A DNA stretch of 64,000 bases from Escherichia coli (GTDB lineage: Bacteria; Pseudomonadota; Gammaproteobacteria; Enterobacterales; Enterobacteriaceae). Positions 30,795 to 61,425 of this stretch are shown in pieces. Position 1 is the first letter of the stretch. Every line of letters starts with the position of its first letter. The stretch lies in NCBI RefSeq assembly GCF_030013205.1, contig NZ_CP122648.1, one strand, 5' to 3'. The notes beneath the pieces were generated by a model, which saw only the letters and a program-made list of their open reading frames with translations, made no database searches and was not told the origin of the DNA. The position numbers were made by a program, and so were the translations under genes.

Positions 30795-32117
30795 GTGCAA
30801 CAGATAGCCCGCTCTGTCGCCCTGGCGTTTAATAATTTACCGCGACCACACCGCGTTATGTTGGGGTCGCTCACCGTTCTTACTCTGGCCGTCGCTGTCT
30901 GGCGGCCCTATGTTTATCACCGCGATGCCACGCCAATTGTCAAAACCATTGAGCTGGAACAGAACGAAATTCGTTCGCTCTTACCTGAAGCCAGTGAGCC
31001 GATTGATCAAGCTGCACAAGAAGATGAAGCCATTCCCCAGGATGAACTGGATGACAAAATCGCCGGTGAAGCGGGCGTGCATGAATATGTTGTTTCCACT
31101 GGCGATACGCTAAGCAGCATTCTCAATCAGTATGGTATTGATATGGGTGATATCACCCAACTGGCTGCTGCCGACAAAGAATTGCGTAACCTGAAAATCG
31201 GTCAACAACTCTCCTGGACATTAACCGCGGACGGCGAACTGCAGCGCCTCACCTGGGAAGTGTCTCGTCGTGAAACCCGAACCTATGACCGTACTGCCGC
31301 TAACGGTTTTAAAATGACCAGCGAAATGCAGCAAGGAGAGTGGGTCAACAATCTGCTGAAAGGTACCGTCGGGGGAAGCTTTGTTGCCAGCGCCAGAAAC
31401 GCCGGTTTAACCAGCGCCGAAGTGAGCGCAGTGATTAAAGCCATGCAGTGGCAAATGGATTTCCGCAAACTGAAAAAAGGCGATGAATTTGCGGTGTTAA
31501 TGTCACGAGAAATGCTTGATGGTAAACGTGAGCAAAGCCAACTGCTGGGCGTACGTTTGCGTTCAGAAGGTAAAGATTATTACGCAATCCGCGCTGAAGA
31601 TGGCAAATTCTACGATCGTAACGGTACTGGTCTGGCGAAAGGATTCTTGCGATTCCCGACGGCGAAACAGTTCCGTATCTCGTCTAACTTTAACCCACGT
31701 CGTACTAATCCGGTGACCGGCCGCGTTGCGCCACACAGAGGTGTTGATTTCGCCATGCCACAAGGTACGCCAGTGCTTTCAGTGGGTGACGGTGAAGTGG
31801 TGGTTGCCAAACGCAGTGGCGCAGCAGGTTATTATGTGGCTATTCGTCATGGTCGCAGCTACACCACGCGTTATATGCACTTGCGCAAGATTCTGGTGAA
31901 ACCGGGACAGAAGGTGAAACGTGGCGACCGTATCGCGCTTTCCGGTAATACCGGACGTTCAACCGGGCCGCATCTGCACTATGAAGTATGGATAAACCAG
32001 CAGGCCGTAAACCCGCTGACGGCAAAACTGCCGCGTACCGAAGGGCTGACCGGCTCCGATCGTCGCGAATTCCTGGCGCAGGCCAAAGAGATTGTGCCGC
32101 AGCTACGGTTTGATTAA
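30795..32117 (+). CDS. mepM: Murein DD-endopeptidase MepM (YebA), LysM + M23 peptidase
   Basis: 440 aa, GTG start; M23 motifs HRGVDFA and GPHLHYEV. Confidence 0.94.
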
Positions 32118-37826: not shown

Positions 37827-39638
37827 ATGAATCCACAATTGTTACGCGTAACAAATCGAATCATTGAACGTTCGCGCGAGACTCGCTCTGCTTACCTCGC
37901 CCGGATAGAACAAGCGAAAACTTCGACCGTTCATCGTTCGCAGTTGGCATGCGGTAACCTGGCACACGGTTTCGCTGCCTGCCAGCCAGAAGACAAAGCC
38001 TCTTTGAAAAGCATGTTGCGTAACAATATCGCCATCATCACCTCCTATAACGACATGCTCTCCGCGCACCAGCCTTATGAACACTATCCAGAAATCATTC
38101 GTAAAGCCCTGCATGAAGCAAATGCGGTTGGTCAGGTTGCAGGCGGTGTTCCGGCGATGTGTGATGGTGTCACCCAGGGGCAGGATGGAATGGAATTGTC
38201 GCTGTTAAGCCGCGAAGTGATTGCGATGTCTGCGGCGGTGGGGCTGTCCCATAACATGTTTGATGGTGCTCTGTTCCTCGGTGTGTGCGACAAGATTGTC
38301 CCGGGTCTGACGATGGCAGCCCTGTCGTTTGGGCATTTGCCTGCGGTGTTTGTGCCGTCTGGACCGATGGCAAGCGGTTTGCCAAATAAAGAAAAAGTGC
38401 GTATTCGCCAGCTTTATGCCGAAGGTAAAGTGGACCGCATGGCATTACTGGAGTCAGAAGCCGCGTCTTATCATGCGCCGGGAACATGTACTTTCTACGG
38501 TACTGCCAACACCAACCAGATGGTGGTGGAGTTTATGGGGATGCAGTTGCCAGGCTCTTCTTTTGTTCATCCGGATTCTCCGCTGCGCGATGCTTTGACC
38601 GCAGCCGCTGCGCGCCAGGTTACACGCATGACCGGTAATGGTAATGAATGGATGCCGATCGGTAAGATGATAGATGAGAAAGTGGTAGTGAACGGTATCG
38701 TTGCACTGCTGGCGACCGGTGGTTCCACTAACCACACCATGCACCTGGTGGCGATGGCACGCGCGGCCGGTATTCAGATTAACTGGGATGACTTCTCTGA
38801 CCTTTCTGATGTTGTACCGCTGATGGCACGTCTCTACCCGAACGGTCCGGCCGATATTAACCACTTCCAGGCGGCAGGTGGCGTACCGGTTCTGGTGCGT
38901 GAACTGCTCAAAGCAGGCCTGCTGCATGAAGATGTCAATACGGTGGCAGGCTTTGGTCTGTCTCGTTATACCCTTGAACCATGGCTGAATAATGGTGAAC
39001 TGGACTGGCGGGAAGGGGCGGAAAAATCACTCGACAGCAATGTGATCGCTTCCTTCGAACAACCTTTCTCTCATCATGGTGGGACAAAAGTGTTAAGCGG
39101 TAACCTGGGCCGTGCGGTTATGAAAACCTCTGCCGTGCCGGTTGAGAACCAGGTGATTGAAGCGCCTGCGGTTGTTTTTGAAAGCCAGCATGACGTTATG
39201 CCGGCCTTTGAAGCGGGTTTGCTGGACCGCGATTGTGTCGTTGTTGTCCGTCATCAGGGGCCAAAAGCGAACGGAATGCCAGAATTACATAAACTCATGC
39301 CGCCACTTGGTGTATTATTGGACCGGTGTTTCAAAATTGCGTTAGTTACTGATGGACGACTCTCCGGCGCTTCAGGTAAAGTGCCGTCAGCTATCCACGT
39401 AACACCAGAAGCCTACGATGGCGGGCTGCTGGCAAAAGTGCGCGACGGGGACATCATTCGTGTGAATGGACAGACAGGCGAACTGACGCTGCTGGTAGAC
39501 GAAGCGGAACTGGCTGCTCGCGAACCGCACATTCCTGACCTGAGCGCGTCACGCGTGGGAACAGGACGTGAATTATTCAGCGCCTTGCGTGAAAAACTGT
39601 CCGGTGCCGAACAGGGCGCAACCTGTATCACTTTTTAA
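37827..39638 (+). CDS. edd: Phosphogluconate dehydratase (Entner-Doudoroff)
   Basis: 603 aa; IlvD/Edd family. Confidence 0.96.
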
Positions 39639-56683: not shown

Positions 56684-57935
56684 GTGCATCCCAAAGTAAG
56701 CGGCTGTCCAGCCATTCCACAGCAAGAATAGTCAAAATTACCGCTGCGCCGAAATAAAACGCAGCCGGTCCCATAGTAAAAGCGAGGATCTGATCGCGAT
56801 TAATCAGCGACATGGTTAAAGATATGACAAACAGGTCGAGCATCGACCAGCGACCAATCCAGGTCACCATCCGCAGTAACAGAATGCGTGTGCGTAAACC
56901 TTGCTGGCATTTAAAATGAATACTCAACAGTAAAGTGAACATGACGATCACTTTAGTAAACGGTACCAGAATACTGGCGATAAACACGATTCCCGCAACG
57001 GCAATGTTGCTACTTGCCAGCGACATAATTCCGGAAAGAATTGTATCTTCCTGCCGTCCTCCGTTCAGATAAATGATAGAAATAGGCAACAGGTTGGCAG
57101 GTAACAACAAAACGATTGACGCTAACAGCGCCGCCCAGCATTTTTGCAGACTATGACGGCGACGCAGGCGTAGCGGGATATGGCAACGCGGGCAGCGACC
57201 ACGCTGATCAGGATAGCCGGTAAAATGGCACCCAAGACAGACACGGAGTTTCTCGTCCCTACGCGTAGCGGGGCGCTGCGGATAAAATCGCTCCCACAGT
57301 TCTTCGACATTGAGATGTGACAACGTCACCGTCGTTAAAATCACCAACGCCACAAAAGAGAACAAGCCGACACCCGTCTGGATATGGGCATAATCCTGCA
57401 CCTTTATAGAAGCAACGCCAATGCCGACCAGGTAGATATCGAGCATTACCCACTCTTTCAGTCGCTCAAGCATCAGCAGTACCGGACGTAGATTCATTCC
57501 CAGTCGGTTACCAAACCATAAATAAGCTATGGAGGTCACCAGAATGAGGGGGGCACCAATAACGCAAAAAAAGACCATTGATCCCGTTATCGCATCGCCC
57601 TGTTTGGTCATTTGCCAGATGCCTTGCATGACGTTGGCGTCAATACGAATGCCTAACAGCCAGATATGCAACAGCGGTTCGCCCCAGGCAAACGGCATCA
57701 GCAACAGCATGGTGAAGGCCATTGCCGCCAGGCGCGTTAGCGACCAGTCGCGCCCGTCACGAATTTTTGCCTGACAGCGCGGACAATAGGCACTTTGATG
57801 AGAATTTATCTCGGGCAGGCTAAACAGCATGTCACATTGCGGGCAACGTTGGTAATCACCACGCGGCAGTTCCTCGCCCATAGCCCTCACTGTTATCTTT
57901 TTTGTCGGCGTAATTTGTGGTGTGTTAAGAGCCAT
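56652..57935 (-). CDS. letA: Inner membrane protein LetA (YebS), PqiA-like
   Basis: 427 aa; zinc-ribbon-like CPQC...CPRC motifs; overlaps letB start by 32 nt. Confidence 0.93.
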
Positions 57936-58064
57936 GACGTGCCAAATGTAATAAGAATTAACATTAATCTTAACCCATGATGGGAATGATCTTGAGCATT
58001 AACGCATTTAATGCTTATTTTAATAGGCTGGCAGTTCCAGGTAAGACAACCAAGTGATTATATA

Positions 58065-58562
58065 ATGAACAAAACAGAATTTTACGCGGATTTAAATCGC
58101 GACTTTAACGCGCTGATGGCAGGAGAAACCAGTTTTCTGGCAACGCTTGCGAACACCAGTGCGTTGTTATATGAGCGTCTCACTGACGTAAACTGGGCAG
58201 GTTTTTATTTGCTTGAGGACGATACACTGGTGCTCGGACCATTTCAGGGCAAAATTGCCTGTGTCCGGATACCCGTCGGGCGCGGCGTGTGCGGCACTGC
58301 GGTTGCCCGCAATCAAGTGCAGCGTATCGAGGATGTTCATGCGTTTGACGGGCATATTGCCTGTGATGCGACGAGTAATTCTGAAATTGTTCTGCCGCTG
58401 GTGGTGAAAAATCAGATTATTGGTGTTCTCGACATCGATAGTACCGTCTTCGGTCGCTTTACAGACGAGGACGAGCAAGGCTTACGTCAGCTTGTGGCAC
58501 AGCTTGAAAAGGTGCTTGCAACGACGGATTACAAAAAATTCTTTGCGAGCGTCGCAGGATAA
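58065..58562 (+). CDS. msrC: Free methionine-(R)-sulfoxide reductase MsrC (GAF domain)
   Basis: 165 aa from ATG 58065 (MNKTEFYADLNRDF); six-frame ORF starts at 58011. Confidence 0.92.
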   Translation: MNKTEFYADLNRDFNALMAGETSFLATLANTSALLYERLTDVNWAGFYLLEDDTLVLGPFQGKIACVRIPVGRGVCGTAVARNQVQRIEDVHAFDGHIACDATSNSEIVLPLVVKNQIIGVLDIDSTVFGRFTDEDEQGLRQLVAQLEKVLATTDYKKFFASVAG

Positions 58563-58658
58563 TCAACGGATAACGTAGCATTTACTGATAGCGTCATTAT
58601 AATGACGCCTGTTCATGCCTGCGCTTGTTGGCTACGTCCGTTGTAATCAGGAAATTTC

Positions 58659-59357
58659 ATGGAAAATCAACCTAAGTTGAATAGCAGTAAAGAAGTAATC
58701 GCGTTTCTGGCCGAACGTTTTCCCCACTGTTTCAGTGCGGAAGGTGAAGCGCGTCCGCTGAAAATCGGTATTTTTCAGGATTTGGTCGATCGTGTTGCCG
58801 GGGAAATGAACCTGAGCAAAACGCAATTACGATCCGCTTTACGTCTCTACACTTCGAGCTGGCGTTATCTTTACGGTGTTAAACCCGGCGCAACGCGTGT
58901 CGATCTTGACGGCAACCCATGCGGTGAGCTGGACGAGCAACATGTAGAGCATGCTCGCAAGCAGCTTGAAGAAGCGAAAGCGCGTGTTCAGGCACAGCGT
59001 GCTGAACAGCAAGCGAAAAAACGCGAAGCTGCCGCAGCTGCTGGTGAGAAAGAAGACGCACCGCGCCGCGAACGCAAGCCACGTCCGACCACGCCACGCC
59101 GCAAAGAAGGCGCTGAACGTAAACCTCGTGCGCAAAAGCCGGTAGAGAAAGCGCCAAAAACAGTAAAAGCACCTCGCGAAGAACAGCACACCCCGGTTTC
59201 TGACATTTCAGCTCTGACTGTCGGACAAGCCCTGAAGGTGAAAGCGGGTCAAAACGCGATGGATGCCACCGTATTAGAAATCACCAAAGACGGCGTCCGC
59301 GTCCAGCTGAATTCGGGTATGTCTTTGATTGTGCGCGCAGAACACCTGGTGTTCTGA
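58659..59357 (+). CDS. proQ: RNA chaperone ProQ
   Basis: 232 aa; [25 protein letters not shown]...; Lys/Arg/Ala-rich linker. Confidence 0.96.
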
Positions 59358-59376
59358 AACGGAGGCCGGGCCAGGC

Positions 59377-61425
59377 ATGAACATGTTTTTTAGGCTTACC
59401 GCGTTAGCTGGCCTGCTTGCAATAGCAGGCCAGACCTTCGCTGTAGAAGATATCACGCGTGCTGATCAAATTCCGGTATTAAAGGAAGAGACGCAGCATG
59501 CGACGGTGAGTGAGCGCGTAACGTCGCGCTTCACCCGTTCTCATTATCGCCAGTTCGACCTCGATCAGGCATTTTCGGCCAAAATCTTTGACCGCTACCT
59601 GAATCTGCTCGATTACAGCCACAACGTGCTGCTGGCAAGCGATGTTGAACAGTTCGCGAAAAAGAAAACCGAGTTAGGTGATGAACTGCGTTCAGGAAAA
59701 CTCGACGTTTTCTACGATCTCTACAATCTGGCGCAAAAGCGCCGTTTTGAGCGTTACCAGTACGCTTTGTCGGTACTGGAAAAGCCGATGGATTTTACCG
59801 GTAACGACACTTATAACCTTGACCGCAGCAAAGCGCCCTGGCCGAAAAACGAGGCTGAGTTGAACGCGCTGTGGGACAGTAAAGTCAAATTCGACGAGTT
59901 AAGCCTGAAGCTGGCAGGAAAAACGGATAAAGAAATTCGTGAAACCCTGACTCGCCGCTACAAATTTGCCATTCGTCGTCTGGCGCAAACCAACAGCGAA
60001 GATGTTTTCTCGCTGGCAATGACGGCGTTTGCACGTGAAATCGACCCGCATACCAACTATCTTTCCCCGCGTAATACCGAACAGTTCAACACTGAAATGA
60101 GTTTGTCGCTGGAAGGTATTGGCGCAGTTCTGCAAATGGATGATGACTACACCGTTATCAATTCGATGGTGGCAGGTGGTCCGGCAGCGAAGAGTAAAGC
60201 TATCAGCGTTGGTGACAAAATTGTCGGTGTTGGTCAAACAGGCAAGCCGATGGTTGACGTGATTGGCTGGCGTCTTGATGATGTGGTTGCCTTAATTAAA
60301 GGGCCGAAGGGCAGTAAAGTTCGTCTGGAAATTTTACCTGCTGGTAAAGGGACCAAGACCCGTACTGTAACGTTGACCCGTGAACGTATTCGCCTCGAAG
60401 ACCGTGCGGTTAAAATGTCGGTGAAGACCGTCGGTAAAGAGAAAGTCGGCGTGCTGGATATTCCAGGTTTCTATGTGGGTTTGACAGACGATGTCAAAGT
60501 GCAGTTGCAGAAACTGGAAAAACAGAATGTCAGCAGTGTCATCATCGACCTGCGTAGCAATGGCGGTGGGGCGTTGACCGAAGCGGTATCGCTCTCCGGT
60601 CTGTTCATTCCATCCGGTCCGATTGTTCAGGTCCGTGATAACAACGGTAAAGTTCGTGAAGACAGCGATACTGATGGGCAGGTTTTCTATAAAGGCCCGC
60701 TGGTGGTGCTGGTTGACCGCTTCAGTGCTTCGGCTTCAGAAATCTTTGCCGCGGCAATGCAGGATTACGGTCGTGCGCTGGTTGTGGGTGAACCGACGTT
60801 TGGTAAAGGCACTGTTCAGCAATACCGTTCATTGAACCGTATCTACGATCAGATGTTACGTCCTGAATGGCCAGCGCTGGGTTCTGTGCAGTACACGATC
60901 CAGAAATTCTATCGCGTTAACGGCGGCAGTACGCAACGTAAAGGCGTAACGCCAGACATCATCATGCCGACGGGTAATGAAGAAACGGAAACGGGTGAGA
61001 AATTCGAAGATAACGCGCTGCCGTGGGATAGCATCGATGCCGCGACCTATGTGAAATCGGGAGATTTGACGGCCTTTGGACCGGAGCTGCTGAAGGAACA
61101 TAATGCGCGTATCGCGAAAGATCCAGAGTTCCAGAACATCATGAAGGATATCGCGCGCTTCAACGCTATGAAGGACAAGCGCAATATCGTTTCTCTGAAT
61201 TACGCTGTGCGTGAGAAAGAGAATAATGAAGATGATGCGACGCGTCTGGCGCGTTTGAACGAACGCTTTAAGCGCGAAGGTAAACCGGAGTTGAAGAAAC
61301 TGGATGATCTACCTAAAGATTACCAGGAGCCGGATCCTTATCTGGATGAGACGGTGAATATCGCACTCGATCTGGCAAAGCTTGAAAAAGCCAGACCCGC
61401 GGAACAACCCGCTCCCGTCAAGTAA
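59377..61425 (+). CDS. prc: Tail-specific protease Prc (Tsp)
   Basis: 682 aa from ATG 59377 (MNMFFRLTALAGLLAIAG, signal peptide); six-frame ORF starts at 59329. Confidence 0.95.
   Translation: MNMFFRLTALAGLLAIAGQTFAVEDITRADQIPVLKEETQHATVSERVTSRFTRSHYRQFDLDQAFSAKIFDRYLNLLDYSHNVLLASDVEQFAKKKTELGDELRSGKLDVFYDLYNLAQKRRFERYQYALSVLEKPMDFTGNDTYNLDRSKAPWPKNEAELNALWDSKVKFDELSLKLAGKTDKEIRETLTRRYKFAIRRLAQTNSEDVFSLAMTAFAREIDPHTNYLSPRNTEQFNTEMSLSLEGIGAVLQMDDDYTVINSMVAGGPAAKSKAISVGDKIVGVGQTGKPMVDVIGWRLDDVVALIKGPKGSKVRLEILPAGKGTKTRTVTLTRERIRLEDRAVKMSVKTVGKEKVGVLDIPGFYVGLTDDVKVQLQKLEKQNVSSVIIDLRSNGGGALTEAVSLSGLFIPSGPIVQVRDNNGKVREDSDTDGQVFYKGPLVVLVDRFSASASEIFAAAMQDYGRALVVGEPTFGKGTVQQYRSLNRIYDQMLRPEWPALGSVQYTIQKFYRVNGGSTQRKGVTPDIIMPTGNEETETGEKFEDNALPWDSIDAATYVKSGDLTAFGPELLKEHNARIAKDPEFQNIMKDIARFNAMKDKRNIVSLNYAVREKENNEDDATRLARLNERFKREGKPELKKLDDLPKDYQEPDPYLDETVNIALDLAKLEKARPAEQPAPVK

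Follow-up and report, generated by a model that had tools for sequence, protein, structure and literature searches.

A perfect 18-bp palindrome between msrC and proQ probably forms the core of the σ70 promoter of proQ-prc

The msrC–proQ intergenic region of the analysed stretch of Escherichia coli DNA (64,000 nucleotides, hereafter the window) contains a perfect 18-bp palindrome, GCGTCATTATAATGACGC, at 58591–58608, confirming what the first-pass annotation had read from the letters alone. We conclude that this inner palindrome is probably the core of a σ70 promoter that drives proQ-prc, and that its symmetry is itself probably not under selection. The proQ start is already known from published genome-wide maps, and the feature belongs with ordinary σ70 promoters. 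Recognizing the palindrome as the mapped proQ promoter removes a false lead, that of an operator or riboswitch. The sequence, geometry and conservation that support the promoter assignment come from the present analysis, and the mapped starts are taken from the literature.

The palindrome is flanked by msrC (yebR; ORF 58065–58562, stop at 58562) and by proQ (58659–59357, ATG at 58659), both in agreement with the RefSeq annotation, with prc next downstream. Window coordinates are converted to K-12 NC_000913.3 by subtraction (K-12 position = 1974193 minus window coordinate). The 141 nt surrounding the palindrome are retained at ≥99% identity, with the annotation msrC | proQ, in 5404/5426 complete E. 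coli genomes. SMRT-Cappable-seq mapped an msrC start at K-12 1916166, corresponding to window 58027, and detected tricistronic msrC-proQ-prc read-through from the same position (Yan 2018). This mapped start falls within a program-made msrC ORF that begins at 58011 (183 aa), which supports the RefSeq msrC start at 58065 (165 aa). The msrC-proQ-prc order is shared by Vibrio cholerae, where a single proQ promoter lies ~50 bp upstream of the start codon, and in Dickeya a promoter is located between yebR and proQ.

Two published maps place the primary transcription start at G58611 on the + strand, giving a 48-nt leader. For E. coli, the proQ start was reported at NC_000913.2 1913606 (18 reads, 48-nt UTR), and the listed upstream sequence ends in ...TATAATGACGCCTG, that is, at G58611 (Kim 2012, suppl. 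file 2). For Salmonella SL1344, the sequence listed from −50 to +1 has this G as its last base, and the start, assigned to operon proQ-prc with a 49-nt UTR, is labelled primary and 'Sigma 70 (-10)' (Ramachandran 2012, Table S1); the longer UTR reflects one extra leader base in Salmonella. The −10 hexamer TATAAT (58598–58603, +) matches the consensus at 6/6 positions, is invariant in the aligned sequences and precedes the mapped start by 7 nt, within the 6–9 nt expected for a σ70 promoter. The earlier proposal that TATAAT serves as the proQ −10 therefore holds in both E. coli and Salmonella. Upstream, across a 17-bp spacer, is a −35-like hexamer, GTAGCA (58575–58580, +), which matches at 3/6 positions and reads GTGGCA (4/6) in some genera; a promoter scan requiring 4/6 in the −35 accordingly made no call here. 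Between the −10 box and the start lies a GC-rich, 7-nt discriminator, GACGCCT (58604–58610, +), invariant save for A/T at 58605 and in three genera.

Relative to G58611, the palindrome spans −20 to −3. Its left arm is spacer (−20 to −14) and contributes GCGTCAT, its centre is the −10 box, and its right arm is discriminator. The start at G58611 thus leaves the palindrome upstream of the main proQ-prc transcript. A proQ start upstream of the palindrome, an arrangement that the first-pass annotation had considered, is not what the maps give, the main start being downstream. Two further details of that annotation can be made more precise. The proQ ATG follows the end of the palindrome by 51 nt, close to the 50 nt given, and TATAAT was placed at the palindrome centre; the hexamer is indeed present, but the symmetry centre falls between 58599 and 58600, so its position is near-central and not exact.

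A promoter that combines a consensus −10 with a weak −35 and a GC-rich discriminator would be expected to be ppGpp/DksA-sensitive and growth-linked. This expectation agrees with the Salmonella map, in which the proQ start had 6 reads in the wild type and 36 in ppGpp0 (6-fold) and was classed as ppGpp-repressed, on low counts from a single experiment in one species (Ramachandran 2012). The proQ promoter resembles the stringently controlled σ70 promoters of rRNA and ribosomal-protein genes in its TATAAT, 17-bp spacer, 7-nt GC-rich discriminator and purine start, as well as in the higher ppGpp0 signal on those low Salmonella read counts. It differs in that neither an UP element nor Fis sites were identified at proQ, and in that conservation reaches the spacer, the 17 nt upstream, the leader and codons 1–13.

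Around the palindrome lies the outer imperfect inverted repeat described previously, CAACGG-ATA-ACGTAGC (58564–58579) and GCTACGT-CCGTTG (58631–58643), comprising 6 + 7 pairs and a 3-nt bulge; like the palindrome, its arms are unstranded features. The left arm occupies −47 to −32, reaching into the −35 from its upstream side, and shows no variation within Enterobacteriaceae; the right arm occupies +21 to +33, within the proQ leader. With these positions, the two arms do not occur together on the primary transcript; only RNA that reads through from the msrC promoter carries both.

We compared the repeats with chance expectation. The single perfect palindrome of ≥18 bp in the window compares with a mean of 0.33 over 200 dinucleotide-preserving shuffles of the 64-kb sequence, and 30% of these shuffles contained at least one, so the 18-bp palindrome alone is unremarkable. 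Two other perfect palindromes, each of 16 bp, occur in the window, TGGGTGATATCACCCA (31144–31159) and TTGTTACGCGTAACAA (37839–37854). The minimum-energy RNA fold of 58555–58665 pairs both the palindrome and the outer repeat on both strands, with z = −1.8 on the + strand (6/200 shuffles fold equally well) and z = −2.9 on the − strand. The repeats are thus borderline on sequence statistics, and the striking part is the conservation of the whole region rather than the repeats. A plausible origin for the palindrome is its self-complementary core, ATTATAAT, to which the conserved spacer and discriminator would by chance add five further pairs. The outer repeat, likewise, may be a conserved upstream promoter segment that happens to pair with a conserved leader segment, the two co-occurring only on msrC read-through RNA.

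To follow the symmetry across species, we aligned the proQ loci of 80 species from about 25 Enterobacteriaceae genera (81 sequences, 52 distinct); beyond this family, ProQ cluster representatives supplied four usable distant loci, with Yersinia, Serratia and Erwinia outside the sample. The perfect 18-mer is present in 39/81 Enterobacteriaceae sequences and extends to 20 bp, GGCGTCATTATAATGACGCC, in Salmonella and Citrobacter. It is imperfect in the other 42/81, in all cases through one-sided changes. Across the 52 distinct sequences, none of the 20 pairs in the nested structure of the first-pass annotation changed on both sides, and the observed pairing equalled that of the shuffled control (500/500 shuffles). 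Pair 58594–58605 is broken in 19/52 distinct sequences, with T58594 invariant and A58605 replaced by T, and the G–C pair 58591–58608 is broken in 7/52. In the outer repeat, pair A58577–U58633 is broken in 34/52 and formed in just 17/52. The first-pass annotation had named conservation in related genomes as a check; among these 81 sequences, the palindrome is conserved as sequence but not as symmetry.

The distant loci give a similar picture. At L082 (70% ProQ identity), excerpts around the palindrome region read GCCTCATTATAATGTCGC and GCCTCATTATAATGTCGCCTGTTCATGCC. At L083 (63% ProQ identity, no msrC upstream), it reads GCGTGTTTATAATGACGC, with GTAGCA, the 17-nt spacer and TATAATGACGCCTGTT retained and GCGTGTT as the left arm. 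The −10 box and GCCTGTT persist in both loci, and the left outer arm is absent from both. At L085, from a 1.15-Mb symbiont genome, the region reads GCTCATTATACTGAAAT and TATACT alone is kept. Judged from these alignments, promoter elements persist in the distant loci while the palindrome arms drift independently, which suggests that inverted-repeat symmetry is not itself the selected property.

These patterns bear directly on the proposal, made in the first-pass annotation, of an operator overlapping the proQ −10. On that account a dimeric DNA-binding regulator would sit on the palindrome and block access to the −10 box, and it might, for example, mediate the negative feedback on proQ mRNA observed with ProQ deficient in RNA binding. 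The account draws on the perfect 18-bp symmetry in E. coli and 20-bp symmetry in Salmonella and Citrobacter, centred on the −10 box, on the invariance of the left-arm CGTCAT in the spacer, which has no obvious σ70 reason, and on the higher level of proQ mRNA produced from the native promoter in ProQ mutants (El Mouali 2021). However, the paired positions are conserved asymmetrically (T58594 invariant opposite a T at 58605 in the 19/52), compensatory changes are absent, the two arms have changed independently of each other in L082, L083 and L085, more than half of the Enterobacteriaceae sequences carry an imperfect version, and a palindrome of this length arises by chance in 30% of windows like this one. 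No second copy with ≤3 mismatches was found in the 64-kb window, and the literature yielded neither a cognate protein nor a known motif for the palindrome. To our knowledge, it resembles no recognized E. coli operator consensus, and by eye we know of no convincing match to those of Fur, Pho, LexA, Zur, PurR, ArgR, DnaA, sigma-E or sigma-32. The operator proposal is therefore unsupported, and we regard it as very unlikely.

The conservation of the surrounding block is far more pronounced than that of the symmetry. In the msrC–proQ spacer (58563–58658), mean column identity is 0.96 with 70% invariant columns, as against 0.75 and 7% in the letA–msrC spacer used as a control, 0.64 and 4% at msrC third codon positions, and 0.69 and 7% at third positions of proQ codons 14–124. 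The constraint continues into the gene: third positions of proQ codons 1–13 (58659–58697, +) reach 0.96 with 62% invariant columns, compared with 7% over the remainder of the N-terminal domain, so that nucleotide-level invariance here includes third codon positions. Together these segments form a conserved block of ~135 nt (58563–58697, +) that extends from the stop of msrC as far as codon 13 of proQ and comprises promoter, leader and translation initiation region. As its identity is far above that of the letA–msrC spacer and of synonymous sites, the block points to strong purifying selection at the nucleotide level.

Within the block, no indel occurs between the −35 and +9 in any of the 81 sequences, with TATAAT invariant, and the spacer CGTCAT is invariant within Enterobacteriaceae. 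The invariance of CGTCAT is not accounted for by known σ70 contacts and counts against a plain promoter. In the Enterobacteriaceae alignment, the leader and the 17 nt that precede the −35 are just as invariant, suggesting that the block encodes more than a simple promoter. The invariance of CGTCAT, these 17 nt, the leader and codons 1–13 exceeds core-promoter needs. As a separate observation, L047, L048 and L050 (Pseudescherichia and relatives) carry GTATAA in place of GGATAA at the stop of msrC, ~95 nt upstream of the proQ ATG, and thereby gain an extra TATAAT ahead of the conserved one.

The proQ 5′ leader (58611–58658, +) is nearly invariant and predicted to be weakly structured. It carries a strong ribosome-binding site, with the Shine–Dalgarno AGGA at 58649–58652, and the 48-nt leader together with the early coding region folds worse than shuffles (z = +1.4), a result more in keeping with an initiation region that is open and efficiently translated than with a structured leader. 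The alternative in the first-pass annotation, a structured 5′ leader, accordingly finds no support: the palindrome lies upstream of the start, the outer arms are not on the same primary transcript, the leader itself folds poorly, and RNAalifold on the 52 distinct sequences did not recover the nested repeat and returned 0 compensatory pairs. The palindrome does not lie within the primary proQ-prc transcript, being transcribed only in msrC read-through or from a second reported 5′ end at 58588.

This second 5′ end of proQ-prc (58588, +) comes from SMRT-Cappable-seq (Yan 2018, suppl. file 4, TSS 1915605 reverse strand). It lies 3 nt before the palindrome and 23 bp upstream of 58611, as the exact mirror of 58611 about the palindrome centre, and is absent on either strand from the E. 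coli map of Kim 2012. Its candidate −10, TAGCAT (58576–58581), is not conserved, reading TAGCAA or TGGCAT in many genera. If the 58588 start is real, the palindrome would be a 5′-proximal hairpin on a minor E. coli transcript. Downstream, Term-seq detected a strong RNA 3′ end at 58634 (+24, + strand), 25 nt before the ATG (Adams 2021; 1915559(−), class 'orphan'). It was scored at 103591 and 41034 in at least two conditions, with 'No' in the field following the Rho score, and there is no U-tract at the site. A further 3′ end from the same dataset lies inside proQ at 58752, in codon 31.

These RNA ends raise the alternative that the repeats act as RNA, either in the msrC-proQ-prc read-through or in the 58588-started transcript. 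The palindrome would then fold into a 5′-proximal or 3′-UTR hairpin nested within the outer stem, and this structure would stabilize the RNA or direct its processing, yielding the abundant 58634 3′ end. Both transcripts have been reported (Yan 2018), the hairpin has a predicted stability of −8.2 kcal/mol, a nested fold is predicted for 58555–58665, the 58634 end falls within the right outer arm, and the predicted fold of 58540–58634 terminates 2 nt past a long-range helix. That helix, CGCAGG (58553–58558, last msrC codons) with CCUGCG (58618–58623), would put the 58634 end just past its stem; as a conserved element it was rejected, since coding-side variation breaks the pairs.

Comparative evidence, however, runs against this alternative. 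The inner stem, the outer stem and the long-range helix show 0 compensatory pairs, in a test whose power is limited by the high conservation, and the variation that does occur breaks pairs. In roughly one-third of species, one-sided substitutions weaken the hairpin to −4.2 or −1.9 kcal/mol. No Rfam match with E ≤ 1 was found on either strand of 57000–60500, Term-seq shows no 3′ end in the left arm (Adams 2021), the candidate −10 of 58588 varies among genera, and the primary start at 58611 leaves the palindrome out of the transcript. An intrinsic msrC terminator was likewise rejected because the palindrome is followed by CTGTTCATGCC, with no U-tract, and no terminator-like site was found on the + strand of 57900–59500. 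We therefore consider an RNA role for the repeats unlikely.

The near-symmetric −10 also invites comparison with a bidirectional promoter, in which the complementary TATAAT (58601 to 58596) would fire antisense into the msrC 3′ end from ~58588. TATAAT is present on both strands, the mirrored positions 58611 and 58588 are 23 bp apart, inside the 7–29 bp expected of such promoters and among the spacings enriched for divergent starts in E. coli (Warman et al. preprint), and a 5′ end has been reported exactly at 58588, though on the proQ strand. Against this, Kim 2012 lists no opposite-strand start near 58588, the opposite-strand −35, GCGCAG, matches at 1/6 positions by eye, the mirrored +1 is T, and the symmetry is lost in half of species. 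The proQ promoter is thus like the symmetric promoters of Warman et al. in its self-complementary −10 region and in mirrored positions 23 bp apart, and unlike them in that no divergent start is mapped and that their commonest spacing is 18 bp. Antisense firing from this site is very unlikely, and a σ70 promoter directed toward proQ-prc remains the preferred reading.

ProQ is one of three global RNA-binding regulators of enteric bacteria, and the control of its level is largely unstudied. More proQ mRNA accumulates from the native promoter when ProQ cannot bind RNA, suggesting autogenous control (El Mouali 2021). The block 58563–58697 could conceivably be the cis-element of a feedback or attenuation circuit on proQ-prc, a proposal that we consider unlikely. 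In such a circuit, RNA synthesis begun at G58611 would stop at +24 (58634), or the RNA would be cleaved there, in a manner neither intrinsic nor, apparently, Rho-dependent, and the balance between short and full-length RNA would be governed by ProQ, either directly or via a small RNA. On read-through transcripts from msrC, a duplex formed by the nested repeats might be recognized by a double-strand-RNA-binding protein, through the ProQ FinO domain or by RNase III, which would uncouple msrC from proQ. The 58588 start, the 58634 end, the proQ mRNA feedback and the extreme invariance keep a regulatory reading alive at low probability; none of the four depends on the inverted repeats.

Autoregulated leaders are known for other global RNA-binding proteins: the hfq 5′ UTR is bound by Hfq, and a hairpin in the pnp leader is cut by RNase III. 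The proQ locus resembles these in encoding a global RNA chaperone with a hint of negative mRNA feedback and in that its leader is unusually well conserved and contains an RNA 3′ end, but differs in that its leader is predicted to be unstructured. ProQ has been reported to prefer structured RNA 3′ ends. The 135-nt promoter–leader block thus offers a mildly interesting entry point to ProQ homeostasis, whereas the inverted-repeat finding is itself ordinary.

Several minor features were noted around the proQ start. A CsrA site (GGA at 58650 and 58661, in a predicted loop) was considered and rejected, as proQ is listed No/No/No/No and not significant by Potts 2017. An ORF at 58615–58680 opens with an invariant ATG 4 nt past the start site; it is 21 codons long in E. 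coli and runs into the beginning of proQ in a different frame. As a conserved peptide it was rejected, because indels of 1–2 nt place it in any of the three frames, depending on the genus. At 58659, the A of the proQ initiation codon, a leaderless 5′ end was reported with 12 reads in E. coli and 28 in Klebsiella pneumoniae (Kim 2012); it has no convincing −10 at a suitable distance and may be a processing site. A direct repeat, GGATAATCAAC (58557–58567) and GGAAAATCAAC (58661–58671), has its copies 104 bp apart at the msrC stop and the proQ start with the promoter between them, and may be due to chance. Finally, RNAalifold identified an invariant 5-bp hairpin, UCAAC-CUAA-GUUGA, at 58667–58680 in proQ codons 3–8, which is kept in L082, L083, L085 and L089 and contains a U–G wobble in L088.
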